From positions 2,190,001-2,222,000 of the forward strand of contig NC_006512.1 of the NCBI RefSeq assembly GCF_000008465.1: 32,000 nt of DNA. The letters are read 5' to 3'. This document shows, in pieces, positions 2,501 to 32,000 of the stretch. The stretch comes from Idiomarina loihiensis L2TR. Lineage in GTDB: Bacteria > Pseudomonadota > Gammaproteobacteria > Enterobacterales > Alteromonadaceae. The stretch's first letter is position 1. The number at the start of each line of letters is the position of its first letter. The notes beneath the pieces were generated by a model. It was not told the DNA's origin, did no database searches, and saw only the letters and a list, made by a program, of their open reading frames with translations. A program made the position numbers and the translations under genes.

Positions 2501-2779
2501 ATGATCAAAACTTTCAAGCACAAAGGACTGAGGCTTTACTTCGAAATTGGAAGTACTCGTGGAATTCAAGCGAACCATGCAGCAAGGTTACGTATGCAGT
2601 TAGTGGCATTAAATACAGCTATGAAAGTTTCAGATCTCGACATTCCGGGATACAAACTGCACCCGTTAAAAGGTAGTCGAAAAAATATTTGGTCGATAGC
2701 GGTTAGTGGCAACTGGCGTTTAACCTTCGAGTTTCGTGATGGTCATGTATATCTACTTAATTACGAGGATTATCACTGA
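2501..2779 (+). CDS. higB: type II toxin HigB (RelE/ParE superfamily, plasmid-maintenance killer type)
   Basis: 92 aa, MIKTFKHKGL...LHPLKGSRKNIWSIAVSGNWRLTFEFRDGHVYLLNYEDYH is the typical HigB pattern. The toxin-first order and 1-nt overlap with the HTH antitoxin are also typical. Confidence 0.85.
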   Translation: MIKTFKHKGLRLYFEIGSTRGIQANHAARLRMQLVALNTAMKVSDLDIPGYKLHPLKGSRKNIWSIAVSGNWRLTFEFRDGHVYLLNYEDYH

Positions 2780-3075
2780 TGTCTATTATGTTTAACCCAG
2801 CCCACCCAGGCGAATTTATTCTAGCAACTTATATGCAGCCTTTTGGCTTGAGTTGCCGGTATTTAGCTACAAAGTTAAATGTTTCTCCATCCACTTTAAA
2901 CAGAGTTTTGAAATGCCAAAGTGGTATAAGCCCTGAAATGGCGTTGCGTTTATCCAAAGCTTTGGGCAGAAGTCCGGAGAGTTGGCTAGCGATGCAGGAT
3001 GCATACGATTTATGGCATGCTGGAAAAAACTTAAGTTTAGATAAGGTTCAGAAGCTTGATCTTACGATCGCATGA
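2779..3075 (+). CDS. higA: HigA antitoxin (XRE-type HTH)
   Basis: 98 aa with PAHPGEFI start and HTH LATKLNVSPSTLNRVLKCQSGISPEMALRLSKALG, immediately downstream of higB. Confidence 0.85.
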   Translation: MSIMFNPAHPGEFILATYMQPFGLSCRYLATKLNVSPSTLNRVLKCQSGISPEMALRLSKALGRSPESWLAMQDAYDLWHAGKNLSLDKVQKLDLTIA

Positions 3076-6709: not shown

Positions 6710-7903
6710 ATGTCATTACCACTACTTTTCAAAGTATTGCTGACCCGTAAAGTGGTTACCATTTTATTGCTGTTACAGCTGGCTATTACTCTGGCACTCT
6801 TACTCAACAGTGTGCTGCTGGCACAGCAAACGCACCAACAACTGAATCAGCCAACCGGCCTCGATTTGGAAGAGACCCTGTTGGTACAAATAAAACCTAC
6901 CACACCGCAACTTCGGGCGTACCCGCTATTAGAAGATCTGCTGGAACGTCAGCTCAATGCACTGCGGAATATTCCCGGTGTTGTCGCAGCAGCCTATAGC
7001 AATCAGGGCATGCTGCTCCAGGGAGGAAATAATGGCAACGTCTATAATGTCGATGACGAAGAGCGAAGCAACACCTCAAGTGTGCCAATCTACTTCGTCT
7101 CAGCCGACTATTTTAAGGTTCTGGGCGTCGATGTGTTGCAGGGTAGACTTCCACAGCAGTCCAGCCTTTTTACTAAAGAGAGTTTCCCCAGCGTGGTCCT
7201 CACTCAAAGTCTCGCTGAACATCTGTTTCCAGAGCAGTCAGCTGTGGGCCGCCAGCTTAACCGCGGTTCGGTAAGTGCGGTAATAAGTGATTTTTATGGT
7301 CAACGTAATGGTGAGAACGTAATGTATAACAGCATTCAGGTTACCCGTCCCTTCAGCGTAGACTGGGGGTACACATTGTTGCTGAGAACATCGCCCGGTC
7401 AAACCTCAGCTGTTCGCCAACAATTAACCACCGTATTACAGCAGGTCGAACCCAACATCGAAATTTTCCATATTCGGAGCCTTGCCGAGCAGCAGCAACA
7501 GCTCTATCGCAATGAATATGGCCTGGCTACTCTGCTCACTATTCTCAGTGCTTTAATGCTAGTCGTCACCATGATTTCGAGCTACAGCAGTACCCACTTT
7601 CAGGTATTAAAACGCCAGCAGGAAATTGGCATCAAGCGCGCTTTGGGTGCCAGTAAGCGGCTGATTTTTATTGAGCTATTAAGTGAAGGTTGGTTATGTA
7701 CCTTAATCGGTACACTGCTTGGCATCGGTTGCGCGCTGCTTCTCAACCATGGTTTATCACAGGTTATCAGCTTGCCATCACTCAACTGGTGGCTGCCGTT
7801 GTTGACCGGCGCTATTTTGTTATTCTCTGTCACCCTGGCCATATGGTATCCTGCAACCATTGCTACCCGGGTGTCTCCCGCCACTGCTACCAAAGCTTTA
7901 TAA
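6710..7903 (+). CDS. second ABC transporter permease, FtsX/MacB-type
   Basis: Same architecture as the preceding gene; FtsX motif KRALGASKRLIF; AAGGA Shine-Dalgarno before the ATG. Confidence 0.8.
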   Translation: MSLPLLFKVLLTRKVVTILLLLQLAITLALLLNSVLLAQQTHQQLNQPTGLDLEETLLVQIKPTTPQLRAYPLLEDLLERQLNALRNIPGVVAAAYSNQGMLLQGGNNGNVYNVDDEERSNTSSVPIYFVSADYFKVLGVDVLQGRLPQQSSLFTKESFPSVVLTQSLAEHLFPEQSAVGRQLNRGSVSAVISDFYGQRNGENVMYNSIQVTRPFSVDWGYTLLLRTSPGQTSAVRQQLTTVLQQVEPNIEIFHIRSLAEQQQQLYRNEYGLATLLTILSALMLVVTMISSYSSTHFQVLKRQQEIGIKRALGASKRLIFIELLSEGWLCTLIGTLLGIGCALLLNHGLSQVISLPSLNWWLPLLTGAILLFSVTLAIWYPATIATRVSPATATKAL

Positions 7904-7905
7904 CA

Positions 7906-9231
7906 ATGCTTAATATATTGGTTATTGATGACAGTTCATCCATTTGCCAGGCTCTGCAGACGCTGTTTTCTCTGCAGGGCTACCAAGTGTGCTGCGCAAC
8001 AACGCCTGAACAGGCGTGGCAGGTGTTAGGTGAACAACCTATCGATTTGATTCTGCAGGACATGAATTTTTCCGTGGGTGAAATGCAGGGGGATCAAGGA
8101 AAAGCCTTGTTCTACCAATTGCGCCAGCAATATCCTGGCTTGCCTATTGTGTTGATGACGGCCTGGACTCAGTTGGATATGGTAGTCGAGTTGGTGAAAG
8201 CTGGAGCCACCGACTACATTGCCAAACCCTGGGACGATCAGCGTTTATTGCTCACTGTGGCCAATGCGCTCAAGTTAAAGCAGCTAAGCGAGCAACAAGC
8301 GCGTAGAGACGAAGAGCGACAGGCAGCTTTTGCCGACAAAGATCTCTGTGGGCTAGTCTTCGCCAGCAATAAGATGCAGCAATTAGTGCAAATGACATTG
8401 CAGCTCGCCCCGGCTAATGCAGCAGTGCTTATAACCGGCCCCAATGGAGCCGGTAAAGAAGGCATTGCCAACGTGTTGCACGCTAACTCGCCACGTAAAG
8501 ACAAGCCGTTTGTTAAGGTCAACATGGGGGCTCTGCCTGCCGACTTAATGGAAGCTGAACTCTTTGGTGCGGAGGCCGGTGCCTATAGTGGTGCGAACAA
8601 AACTCGTATTGGACGTTTTGAAGCCGCCGATGGTGGCAGTCTATTCCTGGACGAGATTGGTAATTTGTCATTATCCGGCCAGGCCAAGCTACTGCGGGTA
8701 CTGCAAACCGGTGAATATGAACGCCTAGGCTCCAGCGTCACTCGCCGCGTTGATGTCCGCCTAATTAGTGCTACCAATACCGATTTAACTACCGCTATTG
8801 CGCAGGGAGAGTTTCGTCAGGACTTATACTATCGGGTTAATGTGGTGCAACTTGCCCTCCCCGCATTAGCCGAACGCCCGGACGACATTCTGCCACTGGC
8901 ACGTTACTTTCTCGGCGGCGAGAAAAACCTCTCCCACGATGCCGAGCAACTCTTGTTAAGCTACCACTGGCCGGGCAACGTGCGGGAACTGCAGAATGCC
9001 TGCCAACGGGCGCTTTTGCTAAGTAACAACAGCACTATTAACAGCGCCAACTTAGGACTTCCCGATACATCAAGTGCCGGTAAACGCGCATTGGATGATA
9101 TTGACCGAAGCGCTATCGACCAGGCCTTACTGCAAGCTGGTGGCGTCATTTCACGCGCAGCTAAACAACTCGGTATAAGCCGTCAGGCACTGTATCGACG
9201 CATGGAGTTTTACGGTATTGAAACGCCTTAA
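7906..9231 (+). CDS. sigma-54-dependent response regulator (NtrC family: receiver, AAA+, Fis-type HTH)
   Basis: True start is ATG 7906 (MLNILVIDDSSS), directly after stop 7901-7903; the track start 7690 overlaps the permease. Phospho-acceptor LILQDMNF, Walker A GPNGAGKE, GAFTGA-loop variant GAYSGA, Walker B LFLDEIG, WPGNVREL, C-terminal HTH AAKQLGISRQALYRRM. Confidence 0.9.
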   Translation: MLNILVIDDSSSICQALQTLFSLQGYQVCCATTPEQAWQVLGEQPIDLILQDMNFSVGEMQGDQGKALFYQLRQQYPGLPIVLMTAWTQLDMVVELVKAGATDYIAKPWDDQRLLLTVANALKLKQLSEQQARRDEERQAAFADKDLCGLVFASNKMQQLVQMTLQLAPANAAVLITGPNGAGKEGIANVLHANSPRKDKPFVKVNMGALPADLMEAELFGAEAGAYSGANKTRIGRFEAADGGSLFLDEIGNLSLSGQAKLLRVLQTGEYERLGSSVTRRVDVRLISATNTDLTTAIAQGEFRQDLYYRVNVVQLALPALAERPDDILPLARYFLGGEKNLSHDAEQLLLSYHWPGNVRELQNACQRALLLSNNSTINSANLGLPDTSSAGKRALDDIDRSAIDQALLQAGGVISRAAKQLGISRQALYRRMEFYGIETP

Positions 9232-10528
9232 ATTAAGACCTTCTCAATTTAGATTAGGTACGAGTCATCGACTCATTCTGGTGTGCATATTACTAACCTT
9301 ACTGGCGTTAGTCGTTCAGTTTGCTTATTGGGGCTATGCGCCGCTCATCAGCGGTGCCATTTGTGTCGCAGGGTTGTTATTCGCAGGATTGCTGCGATGG
9401 ATGCTAAGGCCTTTGATGACAGAAATACAAGCTCTCAACCTGCACGCTCAGAACCTACAGGACGGCAGCTTTAATACCAGCGCCAATCAATTAAAAATAC
9501 GCGAGCTTAGTAGCCTTGCCGAGAGCTTACAAAACATGTCGTCCCAGTTACGGGCTGAACGCGCGAGTTTGTACCAGCGAGAATTGTTACTGGATACGGT
9601 ATTACAAAATAGTCCGCTGGCTTTACTATTAACAGATGCCAGTGACACCGTCGTTATGAGCAATCCGGCGGCACGCCAGCTATTGAGCGCAGGCAACGCA
9701 ATTAATGGCAGCAAACTGACTGACGCCGCAGCACAGGTTTCAGTTCTGGCTGATGCAATAGAGAGAAAGCTACAAGGTTTACTGCGTTTACCAGACCACA
9801 GTGTGTGGCATCTATCGGTTAATCAATTTAATCTCAATCAAAACCAGCACTGGTTATATCTACTTAAACCCCTAACTCGCGAGATACAACGAGAAGAGTT
9901 GACGGCCTGGAAGAAGTTACTACGGGTAATAGGTCACGAGTTGAATAATTCGTTGGCACCTTTATCATCATTAGCCTACTCAGGTCAGCAGCGAGCCCAG
10001 CAATTACAGCAGACGGAACTGGCCGGCCTGTTTGAAACCATCAGTGCACGCGCCGCCGATATCAACCAGTTTGTGCAGGCATATATCCACTTTGCCAAAC
10101 TGCCACCACCACAAATGACTACGGTTAACTGGCCCCGATTAATCAATCAATTGCAGAACTTATACGATTTCGAACTGGTTGGCGATTTGCCGAAACGCCT
10201 CTGGCAAGCAGACCCCGGCCAGCTGCATCAGGTACTGTTGAACTTGCTAAAAAATGCCCATGAAAGCGGTTCACAACCAGAGCATATCCGCCTTCAAATC
10301 ATCGAACACAGCCAGCAACTGGAAATTACTTTACAAGATGGCGGTAGCGGTATGAGCGAACAGCAACTTGAACACGCGCTTATCCCCTTTTACAGCACTA
10401 AAGTCAGAGGCTCAGGTATTGGCTTAACACTGTGTCGCGATATTGTTGAAGCCCACGGAGGTAGCATTAACTTACGTAATCAACCGAGAGGGCTTGAGGT
10501 TAAGCTGTTGCTTAAACTCCCATCATAA
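9218..10528 (+). CDS. sensor histidine kinase (2 TM, PAS-like, HisKA, HATPase_c)
   Basis: H-box IGHELNNSLAPL, N-box LLNLLKNAHES, G-boxes LQDGGSGM and GSGIGLTLC. TTG start overlaps the regulator stop by 14 nt. Confidence 0.85.
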   Translation: MKRLKLRPSQFRLGTSHRLILVCILLTLLALVVQFAYWGYAPLISGAICVAGLLFAGLLRWMLRPLMTEIQALNLHAQNLQDGSFNTSANQLKIRELSSLAESLQNMSSQLRAERASLYQRELLLDTVLQNSPLALLLTDASDTVVMSNPAARQLLSAGNAINGSKLTDAAAQVSVLADAIERKLQGLLRLPDHSVWHLSVNQFNLNQNQHWLYLLKPLTREIQREELTAWKKLLRVIGHELNNSLAPLSSLAYSGQQRAQQLQQTELAGLFETISARAADINQFVQAYIHFAKLPPPQMTTVNWPRLINQLQNLYDFELVGDLPKRLWQADPGQLHQVLLNLLKNAHESGSQPEHIRLQIIEHSQQLEITLQDGGSGMSEQQLEHALIPFYSTKVRGSGIGLTLCRDIVEAHGGSINLRNQPRGLEVKLLLKLPS

Positions 10529-11087
10529 CGTCCCAAAACGAATATTGATATTTGTACTCCAGTGGAAGCGTATAAGAAACGGTTTTTTCTTTTCCATTAA
10601 CAATGAGCTTAAAACTGACTTTTTCCAGGAGCTTTTCAGGCATACCTTTTTCGTAGTGCATAACAACAGACTCCCGGCAACCCACCTTACCCGCGCATTT
10701 AGATACAGTGGACTCAACCTTTGACGGTATGATGCGTTCACCCGATTCAGAATAGTGCTCCAGAACCACCGACTCGGGTATAAGCTCTACGCCGGACTCA
10801 TCACTCAAGTTGAAGCTTAAAAATGACTTTCTCCGGGTCGACTCTGGCGTTCCTTGATGACTATTGTACACATCGTTCAAATGCGTAATCTCGACCAAAT
10901 CGCTAAACCGACTGTCTGCGTTTACTTTATAAAGAGTGCTGTAAAACTCGTACGGGTTGTCATCATTGTCAGCATACTTATTTTTATAGGGAACAGGTGA
11001 CCCATCCCGCTTTACGGCATAGTTGTAATGCCCGCAACCAGCGAGCAATAAAGAGGCCAGAGCTGTCAAAATTGTCAGTCGTTTCAT
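10512..11087 (-). CDS. hypothetical lipoprotein
   Basis: Lipobox MKRLTILTALASLLLAGC. No family recognised. Its 3' end overlaps the convergent kinase gene by 17 nt. Confidence 0.6.
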   Translation of the reverse strand: MKRLTILTALASLLLAGCGHYNYAVKRDGSPVPYKNKYADNDDNPYEFYSTLYKVNADSRFSDLVEITHLNDVYNSHQGTPESTRRKSFLSFNLSDESGVELIPESVVLEHYSESGERIIPSKVESTVSKCAGKVGCRESVVMHYEKGMPEKLLEKVSFKLIVNGKEKTVSYTLPLEYKYQYSFWDVMMGV

Positions 11088-15647: not shown

Positions 15648-15778
15648 TTACTCCTCACCAAGCTCGGACATCCGCAATAGCTGACTACTGCGACGCACAG
15701 TCAGAATATCAACCTGATCTTTGATGCTGTAAATAACCCGATACGATCCAGCGCAAGCGGGGATCAGATAATCTTCAT
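15648..15778 (-). pseudogene. decayed ParE/RelE-family toxin (internal out-of-frame deletion)
   Basis: An ATG overlapping the antitoxin stop (ATGA at 15775-15778) opens MKII and stops after 4 codons. A different frame then reads DYLIPACAGSYRVIYSIKDQVDILTVRRSSQLLRMSELGEE-stop (stop at 15648-15650). That is a typical RelE/ParE C-terminal beta-strand region. About 50 central codons are missing. Confidence 0.6.
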
Positions 15779-16056
15779 TGAGCAAGCCTACTCAAAACCC
15801 GAGCCTTCGCATCTTCATGCGAAATACCGTTCCCGGAAGCAATCTGTTCTTCCGCCTTGTACACCTCTTCTAGTATTTCCAGACGTTGTTGCATCTTCTC
15901 ATATTCGTGAACATCCACCAGTACTGCAACGCCTCGACCTCTTTGTGTCAGCACTATAGGACGACGGGTTTCATGGAGCTGCTTTACGAATGTGGCTACC
16001 CCTGCACGAAATTCAGACAGAGGGCGGATATCTTCATCTACTCTAACCCTTGACAT
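15775..16056 (-). CDS. Phd/YefM family antitoxin
   Basis: MSRVRVDEDIRPLSEFRAGVATFVKQLHETRRPIVLTQRGRGVAVLVDVHEYEKM... is classic Phd/YefM. ATG 16056 is preceded by GAGGTG; the track start is GTG 16065. Confidence 0.8.
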   Translation of the reverse strand: MSRVRVDEDIRPLSEFRAGVATFVKQLHETRRPIVLTQRGRGVAVLVDVHEYEKMQQRLEILEEVYKAEEQIASGNGISHEDAKARVLSRLAQ

Positions 16057-16147
16057 GGAAATCACCTCAGTACTTTTTAATGTACATCAAAGAGTACAAT
16101 AGGGCTTGGAAGCAAGCAAGGTATCTGTAGGAAAAACCAGCGCTCTG

Positions 16148-17061: not shown

Positions 17062-17113
17062 TAACGCTGACTCCTGGTGAAATATAACGCCCACAGCATG
17101 GTTATGTGAGACT

Positions 17114-17671
17114 TCACAGTAACCCTTTATTTTTCTTAAACCGCCTAACCTTACTACGCATGTTTTTCATTGGTGATGATGTATTGAACTGAATCATGCG
17201 GCCCAACGTCCATTTATCGTACCAAGTAGTTTCGTAGAGATCATAGTTACTTAAGCTTGAAATCAGTGAAAGCAGTTCATTAACTGTCGATTCAAGCTCC
17301 TTTAGCAGGGCTTCATATTTCCAATCAGCATATTGTTCATGGAAATGCTCTGCAAGCAAACCCAACTGATTCCATTTAAAACCTGATTCTGGAAATTCAA
17401 CTGGCAGCCCTTGAGCCTTCAACCTATGCCATTTCAATACCAACTTACCCCAACCAATAAGGTAAGCAACCGTGTCACAGACGCTTACTTGCGTGCCTTT
17501 TATGTTTCCCTCAACATTACGTTCTCGTGTCAATTCGACAGGTATTGTCCGATAATCTGCCATAAGCTTGTCAAATATTGAGTTGATAGCAAGTTCCAAC
17601 TCTTCTTTTGATTGTGGAATGGATGAGACCGGCTTGTTATGTATTTTTCTCACAACCAGAACCTTGCACAA
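17114..17671 (-). CDS. ClbS/DfsB family four-helix-bundle protein (DUF1706)
   Basis: SKEELELAINSIFDKLMADY ... VCDTVAYLIGWGKLVLKW ... FKWNQLGLLAEHF ... WTLGRMIQFNTSSPMKN follows the ClbS/DfsB pattern. The start is uncertain: ATG 17671 or GTG 17653, both overlapping the upstream ORF. Confidence 0.65.
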   Translation of the reverse strand: MCKVLVVRKIHNKPVSSIPQSKEELELAINSIFDKLMADYRTIPVELTRERNVEGNIKGTQVSVCDTVAYLIGWGKLVLKWHRLKAQGLPVEFPESGFKWNQLGLLAEHFHEQYADWKYEALLKELESTVNELLSLISSLSNYDLYETTWYDKWTLGRMIQFNTSSPMKNMRSKVRRFKKNKGLL

Positions 17672-17951
17672 AAAATTTGAACGCGAAAAATAGCGGCAGC
17701 AAAATAGCTGACCAAATAGTTGATAAAAACAAGATAGCCATGAGGATGGATATACCGCCTCCCTCCAGCTCGAAATTAATGGCGTATGCTGTTATCACAG
17801 ATAAAACCACGCATAAAAAAGTCATTTTAATAGGTGGAAAGTAATACTTCTCAGGAAGCCATTTAGCTGATAGTGACCAAACCAGCAAACATGGCCCAGC
17901 CGAAAGACATGCCAGTAAAGCTACTGCGCCTATGAATATGATTATTTCCAA
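17637..17951 (-). CDS. small hypothetical membrane protein (3 TM)
   Basis: Hydrophobic 104-aa ORF with a TTG start and GGGAG upstream. It begins right after the attC-like element. Confidence 0.4.
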   Translation of the reverse strand: MEIIIFIGAVALLACLSAGPCLLVWSLSAKWLPEKYYFPPIKMTFLCVVLSVITAYAINFELEGGGISILMAILFLSTIWSAILLPLFFAFKFFVQGSGCEKNT

Positions 17952-17970
17952 CTACAGAATTCTCCCGGAT

Positions 17971-18042
17971 ACATAACGCCCGCATTTGCGGTTGGTTTGA
18001 AGCGAAGCGGAAAACCAATCCGACAACATGCGCTTGTTAACT
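17971..18042 (-). repeat. integron attC-like imperfect inverted repeat
   Basis: Read on the minus strand directly after stop 18044: AGTTAAC-AAGCGCATGTTGTCGGATTGGTTT-[13 nt]-AAACCAACCGCAAATGCGGGC-GTTATGT. This gives an RYYYAAC-like box, arms that pair with bulged bases, and a GTTRRRY-like box. Length is 72 nt. Confidence 0.5.
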
Positions 18043-18043
18043 T

Positions 18044-19075
18044 CTAAAAATCCTCTTCAGATTTGTCCTCTAACGTATCTATACCTTCCTCTAGTTGAAT
18101 TCTCCGAGCTCGCTTCAATATTGAATTTCCTAGTTTAGTAAGACTCCAATATTCTTCTTTATCATTTACTGAATGCTTTTTCTTAGAGGGTTGCACCAAA
18201 TCTAAAGCGACCAAATCAGCTATCATTCCTTTTATCTTGTTATCTCCTATGGGCCAAGTACGAAACCAATTATTACCAACGTGCTCAAACGCAATTTCTT
18301 TAGCAATGGTTTTGCTGGAACTTTCATTGACTAAAGTTGGGGCGATCATTAAGAATATTTCGAGTAACGTGTTTCTTACTTTCTCAGCATCATCCCAGCG
18401 TCCTTTATCAGATTTTCTTCTTACCTTGAATTTTCTGGTATTGTCATCAAGGATGTGAACCAATCTCTTTTCTTCGTCTGGTTGCTCAATAGTTTTAAAC
18501 CCTTCAATTTTTTTTCTAAGTGTCGAATTCTCAGCACTCAATCTAACCAATTCTTGAGTTGCTTCAGTTGTCGGGGCGTCGGTTGCTCTCACCCAGCCAA
18601 TTCTTGGATTTAGGTTCATAGTTTTCATTAAAGAAATGGAAACTTTCCCATGAAGGTCATCTTTAGATTCCCAAAAATGAACCAATTTAGATTTCACCTT
18701 AGATTTAAAGGCTTCAAGTTTTTTAAGTTTTTTATCTGACTTGTCAATTCTACTTGATGGCCAGGAGGCATCATCGGATATAACAAACCCTAGTGTAGGC
18801 ACTCCTAAAGAGGAAGCATAATCATATTCTTTTTCAGTATAGCTAATGCCATCTTCAGTCTCAGAACCGTATCTGTGCCCAACAATTATTACGTAATAAT
18901 CTGTTTGTTCTATTTGTCTAGCGATAAGCTTCCATTGTTCTTCATCTCCAGCACTAAACATTTCCATTCCAACAGGAATATGCCCCATTTCGAGTACCGC
19001 TTTAATGACCTGCTCTCGTTCTTCTTTCAAATCATCGTAAGTTGAGCTAATAAATACTTGATATTTTTTATTCAT
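18044..19075 (-). CDS. DUF4062 (TIR/nucleoside-deoxyribosyltransferase-like) domain protein with coiled-coil and putative winged-helix C-terminus (paralog A)
   Basis: N-terminus KYQVFISSTYDDLKEEREQVIKAVLEMGHIPVGMEMF...DYYVIIVGHRYGS matches the DUF4062 signature. Central coiled coil QELVRLSAENSTLRKKIEGF. C-terminal ...EEYWSLTKLGNSILKRA. The gene is very AT-rich relative to its flanks. Confidence 0.7.
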   Translation of the reverse strand: MNKKYQVFISSTYDDLKEEREQVIKAVLEMGHIPVGMEMFSAGDEEQWKLIARQIEQTDYYVIIVGHRYGSETEDGISYTEKEYDYASSLGVPTLGFVISDDASWPSSRIDKSDKKLKKLEAFKSKVKSKLVHFWESKDDLHGKVSISLMKTMNLNPRIGWVRATDAPTTEATQELVRLSAENSTLRKKIEGFKTIEQPDEEKRLVHILDDNTRKFKVRRKSDKGRWDDAEKVRNTLLEIFLMIAPTLVNESSSKTIAKEIAFEHVGNNWFRTWPIGDNKIKGMIADLVALDLVQPSKKKHSVNDKEEYWSLTKLGNSILKRARRIQLEEGIDTLEDKSEEDF

Positions 19076-19105
19076 TGTTCCCTCAGTTCGAACAGGAAGT
19101 TAACC

Positions 19106-19134
19106 TTTGTATATTGTGCATGCGCACTTTGTAA
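19106..19134 (-). promoter_or_regulatory. putative sigma-70 promoter with operator palindrome, DUF4062 paralog A
   Basis: Minus strand: TTACAA (19134-19129), 17 nt, TACAAA (19111-19106). The spacer holds TGCGCATGCACA (plus strand 19115-19126), 5/6 arm matches to a TGTGCA|TGCACA palindrome. The same arrangement occurs at 29014-29042. Confidence 0.45.
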
Positions 19135-19411
19135 CTCACTCAATTTCTAATTCTCAGTCTTTAAGCTACTGATACAGAAAATATTTTCATCAAGTAACCA
19201 ACTAAAAAACGAAAGCAATTTAAGCATGCTCATTTCTACTCTAACGGGTGCACAATACCCAACGTTGAATTTCAATTATGTATCTGACATTAAACGAGTT
19301 AATTAGCCGATACAACAATAAATGAGCAATAATACTGATAAAAATGAGCGTTAGGTTAAACTAGAACTAAAGGTAAAATCGTTTCTCAAAAAGCCCTATG
19401 CGAGGCACACC

Positions 19412-26897: not shown

Positions 26898-26994
26898 AAC
26901 ACTTGAAAGAGGGTTGTTAATAGCACTTGGTTTCGGTATGAATCGATAGTCCTATTTGACTGGCCTTGTTAGAGATATCGAGCTTTCCACAAAG

Positions 26995-27237
26995 CTACTC
27001 TTCGCTGCCCTTCATATACTCTTGATATCTACGACTAGCCTCTTCTTCGCTTATGTCTGGAGTTATTTGTAGAAACTTTTTAGCATATTTTTCAAATGCT
27101 TGAGCTTTGACTTTGGCAACCTCAGACTGAAGCTTAACTTCAACTTTCGCAAGAAGTTTCTGAAGTCGAGCAATTTCTCTTTTTTGTTCTACCACTACTT
27201 GTTTGTAATATCTAACATCGTATTTGTTTTCTTCCAA
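26995..27237 (-). CDS. hypothetical small coiled-coil protein
   Basis: 80-aa charged heptad-rich ORF (REIARLQKLLAKVEVKLQSEVAKVKAQAFEKYAKK). TTG start with GGAG upstream. No family recognised. Confidence 0.4.
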   Translation of the reverse strand: MEENKYDVRYYKQVVVEQKREIARLQKLLAKVEVKLQSEVAKVKAQAFEKYAKKFLQITPDISEEEASRRYQEYMKGSEE

Positions 27238-27324
27238 TGCTGAATCTCCTTTTTGCAGTGGTTGGAGGCTATAGGACTGGCATCTATAACGCCTAGCGCA
27301 TCAGCACGACAAGTACAAGTGCCA

Positions 27325-27885
27325 TTACTTGGCTGCAGATTTAAGTGCCTTGAAGAATGCATCTTGTTCCGGCGCACCCTGGTCGTTATACAGAGCTTTA
27401 TTCATAAGATTTGACCATGTATGAATGACATACCCACCATAGTTTTTTTCTTCAACCAAATCCCTAAGTGAATTTGCACCAAGCATCTTTTTAGCTAATT
27501 CAGTCGCAGCAGATTTCGTAATATGAATTTGTTCCCGATACTTTGTCACGTAAATCTTACTTTTGAATTTGACAGGAACACCAACTACGACAATTTCCTC
27601 ATACGAGGTATGTAAAAACGTTTTATAGACACCATACAGAATGTCCCGGCGGGTACTGGCTCGGATCACATCTGGTAAATCACCAGGAAATATCTGAGTC
27701 GAAAGCTGGATTGTCGGTAGGGTGCCTAAATCGAGAACCTTGAAGGTACCATTTTCTTGACTGTAATCACTTTTGTCACTAATCATCGCACGTATCGAGT
27801 CGTACTGTTTGAGTTCAGCAGAATTAGCTGGCGAAACTGCGAACGCGACAAAAAACACCGTAATGATCAAGTTTGTAAATTTCAT
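27325..27885 (-). CDS. hypothetical secreted protein
   Basis: Signal peptide MKFTNLIITVFFVAFAVSPANSA, GGAGGGG Shine-Dalgarno. It starts 55 nt after the DUF4062-B stop. No family recognised. Confidence 0.55.
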   Translation of the reverse strand: MKFTNLIITVFFVAFAVSPANSAELKQYDSIRAMISDKSDYSQENGTFKVLDLGTLPTIQLSTQIFPGDLPDVIRASTRRDILYGVYKTFLHTSYEEIVVVGVPVKFKSKIYVTKYREQIHITKSAATELAKKMLGANSLRDLVEEKNYGGYVIHTWSNLMNKALYNDQGAPEQDAFFKALKSAAK

Positions 27886-27940
27886 ATTAAACCCCTCCTG
27901 TCCACCGACAGTTCTTGAAGCATCTAACGCTTTGCTAAGC

Positions 27941-28990
27941 TTACTTTAGCAACTCATTCAATATTTTTACTCGCTGCTCCTTTGTAGACTTTAAAACACC
28001 TTTCTCGTAGTTCACATATAGTGGACGTTTATTTTTCACGTAACCTTCTACTCCAAAGCAATATTTTCCAGTGGTGAACATAAGGTGTGGTTCGTTTTCT
28101 TCTACACCAAAATCACTTTCGTAGAAAAGGCCTGTTTCTAATAAGTAATCTACCCACGATTTATTCTCTGGAGTAACAGAGGCGATTTTATTGATCTCTG
28201 TATCTCCAATAAATGCATCAAGTTCTATAGTGATTGGCATCTCGTCGTCCAAGTTAAATATTTCAGCAAAAAACTTTTTAGTATTTGCATAAGTCTCTAT
28301 CTCGCTTATAGATTCCTCTACTTTAGCTTCGTCAGCGCTAGATGAACGATATAAACTCTTAACAAGAGCTTCTAATTTACCATTAGAATCTTTCAAGTTA
28401 CTCAATAAATGATTCGTAGCGTCGATTTGAGTTTTTACTTCTCTAGTTCTCAAAAACTCAAAGAAAAGTCCAGCCCATTGTTTACGTAAATGAACTTCTA
28501 TATCATTGAAATTAGAGAAACCTTCAAAAGCATTATTCACCGGAGAGCGACGAACGTCATCAATAAACTTAAATATATTTTCTGCATCATCCTGTTTTTC
28601 TACCGCAGGGAAATTTATTTTATCAATGAATTTTTGATTTCTATTTTCTCTATATATGTGATGATTATTAAGAACTGAATTTCTTATATATGTGAAAACA
28701 GGAACATTTGCAGCTTTAGCTGCTTCATATTCAGCATTAGTAATAGATTTCGACTTATCTTTAACATACCCACCACCAAATCGACCTCCAATTATTAAAA
28801 TAAAAAGTTGGCAATTTGATACTTCATGTACGCAAGCATCATGAGTATGAAGGTCAGGATGATAGAATACATCTCCATGTTCACTAAGAATTGGATCGAA
28901 ACCAAACGATCTAACGAATTTGTTCAGTTGCTCTCTTACTTCAGATAAATCAAAACACGTAGAGCTGATAAAAACTTTTGGGATAGCCAA
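27941..28990 (-). CDS. DUF4062 (TIR/nucleoside-deoxyribosyltransferase-like) domain protein with coiled-coil and unrelated C-terminal domain (paralog B)
   Basis: N-terminus IPKVFISSTCFDLSEVREQLNKFVRSFGFDPILSEHGDVF...CQLFILIIGGRFGGGY matches the DUF4062 signature. Coiled-coil middle. The C-terminal ~120 aa are unrelated to paralog A. TTG start with GGAG 6 nt upstream. Extremely AT-rich. Confidence 0.7.
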   Translation of the reverse strand: MAIPKVFISSTCFDLSEVREQLNKFVRSFGFDPILSEHGDVFYHPDLHTHDACVHEVSNCQLFILIIGGRFGGGYVKDKSKSITNAEYEAAKAANVPVFTYIRNSVLNNHHIYRENRNQKFIDKINFPAVEKQDDAENIFKFIDDVRRSPVNNAFEGFSNFNDIEVHLRKQWAGLFFEFLRTREVKTQIDATNHLLSNLKDSNGKLEALVKSLYRSSSADEAKVEESISEIETYANTKKFFAEIFNLDDEMPITIELDAFIGDTEINKIASVTPENKSWVDYLLETGLFYESDFGVEENEPHLMFTTGKYCFGVEGYVKNKRPLYVNYEKGVLKSTKEQRVKILNELLK

Positions 28991-29013
28991 TTGCTTCTCC
29001 TTTAAACTTAATA

Positions 29014-29042
29014 TTTATATATTGTGCTTGCACACTTTGTAA
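29014..29042 (-). promoter_or_regulatory. putative sigma-70 promoter with operator palindrome, DUF4062 paralog B
   Basis: Minus strand: TTACAA (29042-29037), 17 nt, TATAAA (29019-29014). The spacer holds TGTGCAAGCACA (plus strand 29023-29034), a 5+5 inverted repeat. It is homologous position by position to 19106-19134. Confidence 0.5.
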
Positions 29043-29375
29043 CTCGTTCAATTGATAGTTATTGGTTCTTAACTTACTGATAAAATGAAAATTCTGATCT
29101 TGAAGCCCTCTGAACAAGAAAAGGCAATTTGAGCATACTCAGTTACACTTTAATGGGCGCACATGTCTAAATTTAATTTTTCTTTATGTGACTGACAATA
29201 AACGACTTAAATGCACAGCACAATAACAAAACGCGCAATATTGTTGAGATAAGCGTGCAGTGCACGGTTAGCGTCATCCACTATTATTAATAACAGGATG
29301 ACTAATCATTAATTGAAGTAGACAAAGAACTTTAAAAATACCAAAGGTGGACTCATAGATGACTAGTGAGAAGTT

Positions 29376-30444: not shown

Positions 30445-32000
30445 TTAGGTCCTTTTTCTATCTTTACCCTGAAGTTCACTTAAATATTCACTTATTTGTT
30501 TCAGATCTTCTGCCATTTCTCCGATGGTAGGATAAGGGTCGCCTACAGAGGGGGCACTATCATGCCCAGTAAAGTATTTACTGCATTTAGCCATCGCTGC
30601 ATTAATTTTTGAGACATCTATATCACTAATGTCTGTTAATTGCCCCAAGCGCTTTGTTTGAATCGCACGCTCGAATCTATTAACAACCTTGTTCAATAGC
30701 TTTTCTTCAATCAGTCGCTCCCAGCTCTCCCTCAGTAGACCGTAGAATTCGCGCGACACTCGTCTGAACTCACTATCAGTTCCATTTTGATCAATCCTTC
30801 TTACTGCTTGTAACTCTGCGTTAAGTTGTTTCACACGCTTGCTGGTCGTTAATGCTTCCCATGGAGCGCTATCTCTTACTATACCTGCGAAACCTCTTCT
30901 GGAGCGTTCTAACGCACAGCTACCATGAGGAGCATTCTGTTCTTCAGCAGCTTCAAGCAATAGTTTATAAAAAACAATGTCATGAGTGAAAACAATAACT
31001 TGTCGTAAAAGAGACTCTTTAACGAGTCTTTCTGCTACACGACTTCTCCACTGATGGCTAAGCGAGTTAACAGGATCATCAAAGATTACTGCCGATTTTC
31101 TATGATCAGCTTTCATCTCTGCCAGAAAAGCAGCTATCGCTATACAGCGCTGTTCTCCCTCACTGGCAATTTTTGATACCAAAGGTTCGCCACCCTCTTC
31201 AATCACAAGCTTTAGTTGTTGCGTGCCACTTCTGTTTCTTGTTTGGGCTTTTACAGAAAAACGGATAAATCCGAATTGTTTTAGCTCTTCAGAAAAAGCC
31301 TCCAATAGTGGAGTGACCACACCATTCTGGTAGATTTGAGATGCTAGAGTCGAGACAGGCCTTGTACTACATTCTCGGCCCAAAGCCTTCATTCTAGTGA
31401 TAACTTTGTGCCTTCGAATGTTACTTATTATTGCTTCACGATTTTCAGTGACAAACTTTTTATCCTCGATCTGCTGTAGCTCTGTTTCTTTCTTTTGAAT
31501 TAACTTTTGTAAGTCGGCGTTCGACTTGATGTTTTCATGCTCTGAAACAATTGATTCAATCAATTGCTTGAGTTCTTCCAGTACAGATATGTCAAGAGCA
31601 TCTATCGACTCAGGGAGACGCGAAGGATCAATGAATAGGGGCTTGCGCGAGTTTAGTTGTTGAAATAATAACTCAAAACGTTTTTCTGTTCCGGGCCGTA
31701 ACTTCTCAAACTCAATTAGCGCTGCCCTGTGCTCTTTTAGAGAAGGGGATTGGGATGAAATTAAATTAACCGCATGAGTAACTAGTTTTAGTGCGTCAGT
31801 TGCTTCTGTTGCAGCATTATCCGCTAAGAACTTACTGAGAGACTTAAGCCTTTCGGCACTCGTATCGGATACTCTCTGTAGGCAAAAGGGGCATGTATCT
31901 CCTTCTAATGGTGGAAAACTATGGCTTTTTTCCTCTTGCTCAATAAAACTTTTCGCCGCATTCCACATCGCTTGCCAACTGACACCTGCAACCGTATCTA
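30445..32000 (-). CDS. AAA_13-type ABC/SMC-like ATPase (RloC/PrrC-like), C-terminal ~517 codons; the N-terminal Walker A part lies right of the window
   Basis: The frame stays open upstream of the track ATG 31968 to the window edge. It shows a CPFC motif in a long coiled-coil insert, an ABC signature-like EGEQRCIAIAAFLAEM, Walker B AVIFDDPVNSLSH and an H-loop VIVFTHD. A ~170-aa C-terminal domain carries LLRESWE ... KYFTGHDS. Confidence 0.65.
   Translation of the reverse strand, partial: DTVAGVSWQAMWNAAKSFIEQEEKSHSFPPLEGDTCPFCLQRVSDTSAERLKSLSKFLADNAATEATDALKLVTHAVNLISSQSPSLKEHRAALIEFEKLRPGTEKRFELLFQQLNSRKPLFIDPSRLPESIDALDISVLEELKQLIESIVSEHENIKSNADLQKLIQKKETELQQIEDKKFVTENREAIISNIRRHKVITRMKALGRECSTRPVSTLASQIYQNGVVTPLLEAFSEELKQFGFIRFSVKAQTRNRSGTQQLKLVIEEGGEPLVSKIASEGEQRCIAIAAFLAEMKADHRKSAVIFDDPVNSLSHQWRSRVAERLVKESLLRQVIVFTHDIVFYKLLLEAAEEQNAPHGSCALERSRRGFAGIVRDSAPWEALTTSKRVKQLNAELQAVRRIDQNGTDSEFRRVSREFYGLLRESWERLIEEKLLNKVVNRFERAIQTKRLGQLTDISDIDVSKINAAMAKCSKYFTGHDSAPSVGDPYPTIGEMAEDLKQISEYLSELQGKDRKRT

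Follow-up and report, generated by a model that had tools for sequence, protein, structure and literature searches.

In a 32,000-nt stretch of the Idiomarina loihiensis L2TR chromosome (NCBI RefSeq GCF_000008465.1, contig NC_006512.1, forward-strand positions 2,190,001 to 2,222,000; hereafter the window, with all positions counted from its first letter) we found a gene, gene A, whose 343-aa product is, judged by its sequence, a full-length homolog of KpSwz, the type protein of the Swarozyc anti-phage defence family, including the stalk and the AUX domain. On the basis of sequence and model comparisons we estimate a probability of roughly 0.8 that gene A encodes a functional Swarozyc-type defence NADase. 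Gene A is a marine gammaproteobacterial addition to a defence family defined experimentally only months ago, and it confirms that the logic of this family can be predicted from sequence reading alone. The family of gene A is already known; modestly new are its carriage on integron-type cassettes, a second lineage of the same enzymatic domain with a hypervariable tail (gene B) and a non-coding upstream element (UE).

An earlier note on this DNA, made by a model from the letters alone, had described DUF4062, the N-terminal domain of gene A, as a family without assigned function. This has been overtaken by three preprints of 2026, which place the domain in anti-phage defence as a TIR-like NADase. 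Osinski et al. (bioRxiv 10.64898/2026.05.01.722283) described DUF4062 as such an enzyme and defined Swarozyc with KpSwz of Klebsiella pneumoniae (PDB 10wc/11cq/11cv), which consists of a DUF4062 head, an intertwined helical stalk and an AUX of helix-turn-helix (HTH)/winged type. KpSwz is activated by the phage portal and then splits NAD+, yielding ADP-ribose plus nicotinamide, with E97 as catalytic residue, leading to abortive infection (10.64898/2026.05.01.722283). Ibarra-Chavez et al. (bioRxiv 10.64898/2026.06.25.731849) described Evangelion with Eva01 from the S. aureus plasmid pMW2 (catalytic E87). Le Mouellic et al. (bioRxiv 10.64898/2026.09.04.749371) renamed the domain NIR, added the systems NIR-Avs, Vulcan and Vesta, and found NIR genes near known defence genes in 20% of cases compared with 3.9% expected.

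Homology of gene A to KpSwz

The predicted gene A protein is composed of a DUF4062/NIR TIR-like head (approximately aa 1-105), a helical stalk (approximately aa 106-200) and a winged-helix AUX (approximately aa 201-330). The DUF4062 signature that the earlier note had read at its N-terminus was confirmed by Pfam, with residues 6-87 matching PF13271 at 113.7 bits (cutoff 24.7; E=4.8e-33). The gene A family corresponds to phrog_15411 (full-length match, E=2e-86); NCBIfam and PADLOC gave no usable name for protein A or protein B.

With gene A as a single query, phmmer detected the KpSwz chain 10wc_A with E=1.1e-44. A profile of the 26-member gene A family matched the same chain with E=2.4e-62, and the alignment of profile positions 2-297 to chain residues 3-303 of 326 covers the head, the stalk and most of the AUX. 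Like KpSwz, gene A encodes a single protein in the range of 330-345 aa, with a helical stalk, an HTH/winged AUX and a DUF4062 head that carries its Glu in a T-E-K-x-(F/Y)-D-Y-A motif; the two proteins are alignable over about 300 residues, and gene A lies among defence-type genes. Unlike KpSwz, it is found in a marine Idiomarina, is integron-cassette-borne and has a divergent AUX, and the BLASTP alignment of both proteins showed 37% identical aa over 257 aa.

The deposited 10wc chain is the KpSwz E97A mutant. Its Ala is found at chain position 84, corresponding to a numbering offset of 13, which is confirmed by the position of KpSwz W238/Y239 at chain residues 225/226. This Ala aligns with E83 of gene A (TEKEYDYA), and so does E87 of an Eva01-like S. 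epidermidis plasmid protein, the numbering of which reproduces F11, Q50-W51-E52 and E87 of Eva01. E83, the predicted catalytic residue in the E-Y motif of helix C, is invariant among the 26 family members, as are F8 and Q47-W48, the counterparts of F11 and the Q/W/E motifs of Eva01 (10.64898/2026.06.25.731849). With E83 and the other conserved motifs intact, the predicted head, stalk and winged-helix AUX of gene A all align to KpSwz. The earlier note had favoured the Glu of the GMEMF motif as catalytic residue. This Glu (E38) is also invariant and sits in the loop between strand B and helix B (BB-loop region), but the residue aligned with KpSwz E97 and Eva01 E87 is E83, and the proposal for E38 had to be given up.

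Structure prediction of gene A with AlphaFold2 (AF2) resulted in a model with a mean predicted local distance difference test score (pLDDT) of 78.8. It shows a long helix at residues 170-194 and a confidently predicted C-terminal alpha/beta domain at residues 201-330 (pLDDT about 90). Foldseek searches with the head recovered TIR domains (9lmq, 7xoz, 4c6s, 8qlp, 3ozi) and likewise enzymes of the nucleoside 2-deoxyribosyltransferase (NDT) fold (4jen, 8os9); for the head models of A and B, matches to TIR (9lmq, 7xoz, 4c6s/4c6t, 7djt) and NDT-fold structures (4jen, 8os9, 7o62) had probabilities of 0.9-1.0. The tail of gene A matched winged helices of PadR (9qbc, 4ejo, 6abt) and of Orc1/Cdc6 proteins. 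The TIR/NDT-like fold of the head, at modest TM-scores, and the succession of a coiled coil and a winged-helix-like C-terminus, both proposed from the sequence in the earlier note, are thus in agreement with the models.

A protein identical to A is encoded on 20 contigs from several samples. Full-length relatives with 55-65% identity were found in Vibrio, Shewanella, Pseudomonas, Psychrobacter, Serratia, Erwinia, Burkholderia, Methylophilus and others, and the distribution of the relatives is patchy across genera, resembling that produced by horizontal gene transfer. The GC content over gene A is 0.37-0.38 compared with approximately 0.42-0.53 in the block at 19.5-26.5 kb, in line with the AT-richness observed earlier. 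The surrounding small accessory and toxin-antitoxin (TA)-type genes, also noticed then, are present (Phd/YefM, ParD-like, DUF1706, DUF4269, GNAT, cupin, thioredoxin). A PDC-S06 ATPase, HipBA, TA modules and the second NIR gene are located within 13 kb of gene A.

Comparison with other NIR systems

Gene A resembles Eva01 in its DUF4062 head with F / Q-W / E-Y motifs and in its single-gene architecture, and we liken it to the Eva01 logic of NAD+-depleting abortive infection by one gene. Its head and proximal stalk are 41% identical to the Eva01-like S. epidermidis protein, with only residues 4-167 aligned. Its C-terminal AUX shows no relation to that of Eva01, which is carried on a plasmid in Firmicutes and the escapers of which map to genes of recombination and replication. 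Gene B shares 26% identity with the S. epidermidis protein in the head only (residues 5-104), its tail being unrelated. Assignment of A or B to the Eva01 lineage was ruled out by these unrelated C-terminal tails.

With Vulcan, Vesta and NIR-Avs, both A and B appear to share the NADase effector domain, the catalytic Glu and the modular combination of effector and sensor. Vulcan is characterised by C-terminal HEAT repeats, Vesta by a small NIR protein accompanied by an alkaline phosphatase (vstB), and Avs by a STAND NTPase with TPR. None of these architectures was recovered. Pfam detected no repeat family in A or B, and the AF2 tails are a winged HTH in A and, in B, a small alpha/beta domain that follows a long helix, which excludes Vulcan. 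For Vesta, no phosphatase is encoded beside A, next to which a 3-transmembrane (3-TM) open reading frame (ORF) and DUF1706 are found, or beside B, which adjoins a 186-aa protein without family. The STAND NTPase and TPR of NIR-Avs are absent from A and B in both Pfam and AF2 analyses.

Predicted activation of gene A and its trigger

By analogy with KpSwz, the gene A protein would be present in uninfected cells as an autoinhibited dimer or oligomer. Upon infection, its AUX domains would bind a multimeric phage protein, which is the portal in the case of KpSwz; this binding would realign the stalks and activate the heads, and the active heads would hydrolyse NAD+ and cause abortive infection. The view of the earlier note that an enzymatic head on a sensor tail indicates an abortive-infection or NADase-type immune protein gains support from the match to the Swarozyc experiments (10.64898/2026.05.01.722283) and from the full-length homology.

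In KpSwz, a hairpin with W238/Y239 anchors the portal. These residues align with R227/W228 of gene A, where the Trp is conserved in the family and the first aromatic residue is not. With the AUX divergent and one of the two anchoring aromatics kept, we give the phage portal a chance of about one in three of being the trigger of gene A. A serious though still tentative alternative is that gene A is a NIR-head defence protein whose AUX senses a non-portal target, such as a phage structural or replication protein or, as proposed for Eva01, a nucleic acid. The AUX is the region least conserved with respect to KpSwz, only one anchoring aromatic is retained, the tail resembles the DNA-binding winged helices of PadR and Orc1, and the cue sensed elsewhere among NIR systems is terminase, lambdap79, recombination functions or a signal that depends on a nuclease. 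On the other hand, the profile alignment to KpSwz also covers most of the AUX, reaching chain residue 303 of 326, and both proteins have the same stalk and overall architecture.

Several observations weigh against the assignment of gene A as a functional Swarozyc-type NADase. The Foldseek TM-scores of the head to TIR domains are modest (TMt 0.55-0.67). The predicted template modelling score of the AF2 model is low (0.44), which makes the relative placement of the gene A domains unreliable, and the Foldseek PDB library is older than the KpSwz release, which precluded a direct structural superposition. The PADLOC 2023 models do not recognise gene A; PDC-S60 was matched alone and weakly (E=0.004). 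The search for a sigma-70 promoter gave no significant signal. The half-conserved portal anchor and the low identity to KpSwz, with the AUX as the most divergent part, have to be added; because of this divergence, portal sensing may not transfer to gene A.

Gene A as an integron-type cassette

Defence genes on integron cassettes are an established theme (bioRxiv 10.1101/2024.07.02.601719; PMC12614218), and integrons are unmentioned in the main text of all three DUF4062 preprints. From the cassette boundaries, the attC remnants and the lack of intI in the window we conclude that the DUF4062 genes A and B are integron-type cassettes in decaying integrase-less arrays, one in the island around gene A (Island A) and one in the island around gene B (Island B).

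Cassette A is the best preserved of these. It occupies the first position of its array and has a 24-nt leader. The attC-like site that the earlier note had seen after gene A proved to be real: this 66-nt site, TAACAAGCGCATG...CAAATGCGGGCGTTA, is an imperfect palindrome with bulged bases that folds at -21 to -23 kcal/mol. It was the only strong site of its type in the window in a relaxed scan, which gave 0-4 hits in shuffled sequences. The scan had been relaxed because the strict attC consensus (RYYYAAC...GTTRRRY) returned only a chance site inside hipB. The 3-TM protein that the earlier note had placed after this site exists as an ORF (17637-17951, minus strand, TTG start), which overlaps the start of DUF1706. 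Searches of Pfam, NCBIfam, PADLOC and PHROGs returned nothing for this ORF, and it is called in only some annotations of the same DNA. The position of the attC between gene A and this ORF implies that the ORF belongs to a different cassette.

The 5' boundary of cassette A was defined by comparison with an integron array, L012, in which a true integron integrase (TIGR02249, 419 bits, cutoff 265) lies upstream of a 91%-identical homolog (P0002). The DNA homology of L012 to the window starts exactly at G↓TTAAC (the arrow marks the cassette boundary), 24 nt before the ATG of gene A, runs into the first attC bases (GTTAACAAG) and then stops; the L012 attC is located at the same place. The L012 array contains at least six attC sites, and homology searches identified its integrase as one of environmental type, not from Idiomarina. 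In Shewanella xiamenensis (L037, LDOA01000001.1), a 62%-identical homolog is a cassette adjoining IntI (TIGR02249, 401 bits), with a canonical attC directly upstream; the attC beside this homolog is very similar to that of cassette A. The GTTAACTTTTCA junction is shared by a Vibrio homolog (L007), downstream of which an attC-like site is found. The Swarozyc subfamily of gene A thereby recurs as integron cassettes in four unrelated hosts, in two of them with IntI. This cassette carriage would explain the patchy spread of the subfamily, and it links a NIR/DUF4062 effector to the idea of integrons as defence biobanks.

Two further observations were made in these arrays. At 6001-9617 of L037, the 3' end of the Swarozyc-type cassette is cut by a DDE_3 insertion sequence, which is followed by a group II intron reverse transcriptase; group II introns of this class are known to target attC sites. 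At 6810-9029 of L007, the Vibrio homolog (76% identical) lies directly downstream of a PIN-HNH protein cassette, and the two may form another pair of defence-type cassettes.

Clusters of attC sites lacking integrase are known as CALINs. Like integron gene cassettes, gene A is a single ORF, promoterless and bounded by G↓TTRRRY and an attC, and it has orthologs in IntI-adjacent arrays (L012, L037); the array in the window is likewise integrase-less, and it is decayed and chromosomal. Unlike integrons and CALINs, the window has only one intact attC, and what stands at the head of each array is not intI/attI but a non-coding repeat of about 380 nt. Several genes along both islands are followed by collapsed or truncated attC remnants, and tblastn with IntI gave no match better than E=6 in the window. 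A canonical multi-attC integron in the window was rejected, given the one intact site, the remnants and the lack of intI.

It could be argued that the DUF4062 genes have lost their function and are decaying as passengers in an integron array that is itself dead. The missing intI, the collapse of most attC sites and a RelE/ParE-like fragment beside a Phd antitoxin, read by eye as a sign of array decay, would fit this explanation, which we consider unlikely: ORFs A and B are intact with all invariant family residues, identical protein A is found on 20 contigs from several samples, and cassette A has kept its intact attC. Very improbable, finally, is a housekeeping or stress enzyme processing nucleotides or NAD, or a winged-HTH transcription regulator, with an incidental island location, since the recovery of the NDT/CMP-hydrolase fold for the head (4jen, 8os9) and the many ordinary small enzymes among the neighbouring cassettes (GNAT, thioredoxin, cupin) are opposed by full-length homology to a protein with demonstrated anti-phage NADase activity, by the patchy, transfer-like distribution of the relatives and their cassette carriage in several integrons, and by the published defence-island enrichment of NIR genes (10.64898/2026.09.04.749371).

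Gene B and the Island B hotspot

Gene B had been regarded in the earlier note as a second, divergent copy of gene A with the same flanks. It encodes a DUF4062 protein (84 bits), but of a different lineage, which has only the NADase head in common with A and an unrelated C-terminus. The two proteins align at residues 5-102 only, with 31% identity, and profile-profile comparison with hhalign gave a probability of 97.4% for residues 6-100. Of the flanks, the upstream sequences are homologous (71.5% identity over 207 nt), whereas downstream the intact attC of A contrasts with a collapsed remnant in B.

Conservation in the gene B family covers the head together with a helical stalk of great length (aa 1-215), and the C-terminal stretch of about 130 aa is hypervariable. 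Foldseek detected TIR and NDT matches for the head and none for the tail. The match to KpSwz is marginal (E=0.12, head only), and no HEAT repeats, phosphatase partner or NTPase were found for gene B. In these comparisons, made with KpSwz, the Eva01-like protein, Vulcan, Vesta and NIR-Avs, gene B appears to be a NIR lineage with a sensor unlike the characterised ones.

An 87%-identical ortholog of B (L013) helped to define the cassette. Homology with L013 starts at TTAA(G/T)TTTA at the 5' end of cassette B. The L013 cassette has a full attC ending in GCTTAGCAAAGC↓GTTATGC; in the window, nothing but the fused ends of this site is left.

Island B is a strain-variable hotspot. Three close strains (L027, L028, L029; compared at 8244-11052, 7883-10680 and 7983-10128, respectively) share the core flank up to window position 26952, next to hipB, where homology breaks. 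Beyond this point they carry other, defence-like cargo, which is an AAA_13 ATPase, a cluster with Ser/Thr kinase or a protein of 685 aa. In L027 and L029 this cargo ends with an attC-type L'-R' sequence, ...CAAATGCGGAC↓GTTAAT, almost identical to that of cassette A. With two NIR-head proteins about 10 kb apart that carry unrelated sensor tails, one of them in a cargo-swapping hotspot, this single genome offers a natural system for studying sensor diversification.

The upstream element

Each of the two arrays is headed by a conserved non-coding element, UE, with recombination site, promoter and RNA as candidate roles. The two copies in the window, UE-A and UE-B, are 71.5% identical over 207 nt and thus better conserved than genes A and B. 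The full element comprises about 380 nt, is recurrent in Idiomarinaceae and has an invariant 3' core of about 40 nt. Scanning of genome and metagenome collections with this core revealed further copies in I. zobellii, one Idiomarinaceae metagenome-assembled genome and four metagenomic contigs, two of which contain two copies each. UE is absent from the Vibrio, L012 and L013 loci.

All copies end with ...GTGCGCACGCACAATATAnAAAT(G)↓TTA, beyond which the sequence and the downstream gene are wholly different. Among the unrelated accessory or defence genes that follow are those for DUF4062-A and DUF4062-B, for an HNH-like and a secreted protein and for a small TM protein. In eight of eight copies, an ORF starts on the same strand 17-35 nt from the end of UE. 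At its 5' end, UE matches the position of the L'-R' half of an attC-type palindrome. About 125 nt of the element are enclosed by a 16-bp long-range stem; this stem is 92% paired, compared with 13-69% in slid controls, and four pairs are changed on both sides, a level reached in 4/500 shuffles. On two contigs, UE belongs to a tRNA-Val island that has a P4-type integrase, and occupies its far end; the cargo of these islands includes a Pycsar effector domain and AAA_13/AAA_15 ATPases.

Several known element types were considered for UE. Neither Rfam nor tRNA/tmRNA searches gave a match in the window at gathering thresholds, nor anything credible in UE-B at E<=10, which rules out a known RNA family and a tRNA/tmRNA integration target. 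As a promoter, UE yielded sigma-70-like hits within shuffled expectation and at non-homologous positions in the two copies. A dif/XerCD site was suggested by GTGCGCA...ATGTTA, which resembles dif arms. This reading gained no support, as the arms are spaced 3 nt too far apart and the GC skew shows no terminus in the window. A miniature inverted-repeat transposable element was rejected, as the constant orientation of the copies and their short distance (17-35 nt) to ORF starts argue against random insertion.

In its boundaries, UE corresponds to an integron cassette without ORF or to an attI-like acceptor; the non-canonical R'' box, the lack of an adjacent integrase and the missing promoter and Rfam matches of significance speak against this. 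It is conceivable, although on balance doubtful, that UE represents an undescribed Idiomarinaceae integron module (an ORF-less cassette or attI-like acceptor, possibly promoter-bearing) that acts as the starting point of integrase-less arrays and takes up defence cassettes, Swarozyc-type NADases among them, at its invariant ...GTGCGCACGCACAATATAnAAATG↓TTA end. If this were true, Swarozyc-type genes would spread largely as integron cassettes.

The I. zobellii UE (L014) is a mini-version with both ends only, from which the part between two internal AATTnAACnAGTnAC boxes has apparently been deleted. Directly upstream of it, two coiled-coil proteins are encoded in tandem (L014 1418-3999), the C-terminal domains of which resemble, by eye, the T5orf172/GIY-YIG type. 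Genes of this type are often found in defence islands.

Feature coordinates and neighbouring genes

Table 1. Positions of the described features in the window and of UE copies in other DNA (L-numbered loci).
Feature	Position	Strand	Basis
Gene A, 343-aa Swarozyc-family protein	18044..19075	(-)	Pfam PF13271, KpSwz match, AF2, Foldseek
Codon of E83 (GAA), predicted catalytic Glu of gene A	18827..18829	(-)	alignment with KpSwz E97 and Eva01 E87
Intact attC of cassette A, 66 nt	17974..18039	(-)	custom scan; R'' AGTTAAC at high-coordinate end, R' GTTATGT at low-coordinate end
5' junction of cassette A, GG↓TTAAC	19099..19105	(-)	pairwise junction alignment with L012 integron cassette
Collapsed attC remnant after DUF1706, ACATAAC-CATGCTGTGGGC-GTTATAT	17082..17107	(-)	one of several decayed Island A sites
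UE-A, 5'-truncated copy ending at cassette junction	19097..19331	(-)	sequence comparison of copies
Gene B, 349-aa protein of second DUF4062/NIR lineage	27941..28990	(-)	Pfam 84 bits, family alignment, AF2 pLDDT 75
Codon of E87, predicted catalytic Glu of gene B	28730-28732	(-)	invariant SITNAE in family
Collapsed attC remnant of cassette B, TAAGCTTAGCAAAGC↓GTTAGAT	27922..27943	(-)	comparison with L013
UE-B, near full length, ends at A↓TTAAG junction (29007-29012)	29002..29345	(-)	sequence comparison of copies
Island B variable block: UE-B, DUF4062-B, 186-aa secreted protein, 80-aa coiled-coil protein	26953..29345	(-)	strain comparison
C-terminal 507 aa of PDC-S06/AAA_13-type ATPase, defence candidate	30445..31968	(-)	PADLOC PDLC04891
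UE copy in L014	4040-4134
UE copy in L015 (= L022)	235-618
UE copy in L018	1398-1760
UE copies in L019	5316-5680 and 10965-11328
UE copy in L020	1-339

The PDC-S06 ORF matched its PADLOC model with E=1.5e-194, residues 1-504 being aligned to model positions 357-855 of 858. Its ATG at 31968 lies 32 bases from the window end, and the N-terminal part is missing from the listed ORF. The gene shows about 65% DNA identity to that of an 862-aa ATPase in the UE-headed island of L020.

At 15648-16065 (minus strand), an ORF of 45 aa comes after a gene for a Phd/YefM antitoxin and, by eye, looks like a truncated toxin of the RelE/ParE type; if so, the array is decayed and the antitoxin is an orphan. Outside both islands, at 2501-3075 (plus strand), a pair of genes for 92 aa and 98 aa was found, which by eye resembles a HigB/HigA-type toxin-antitoxin module.

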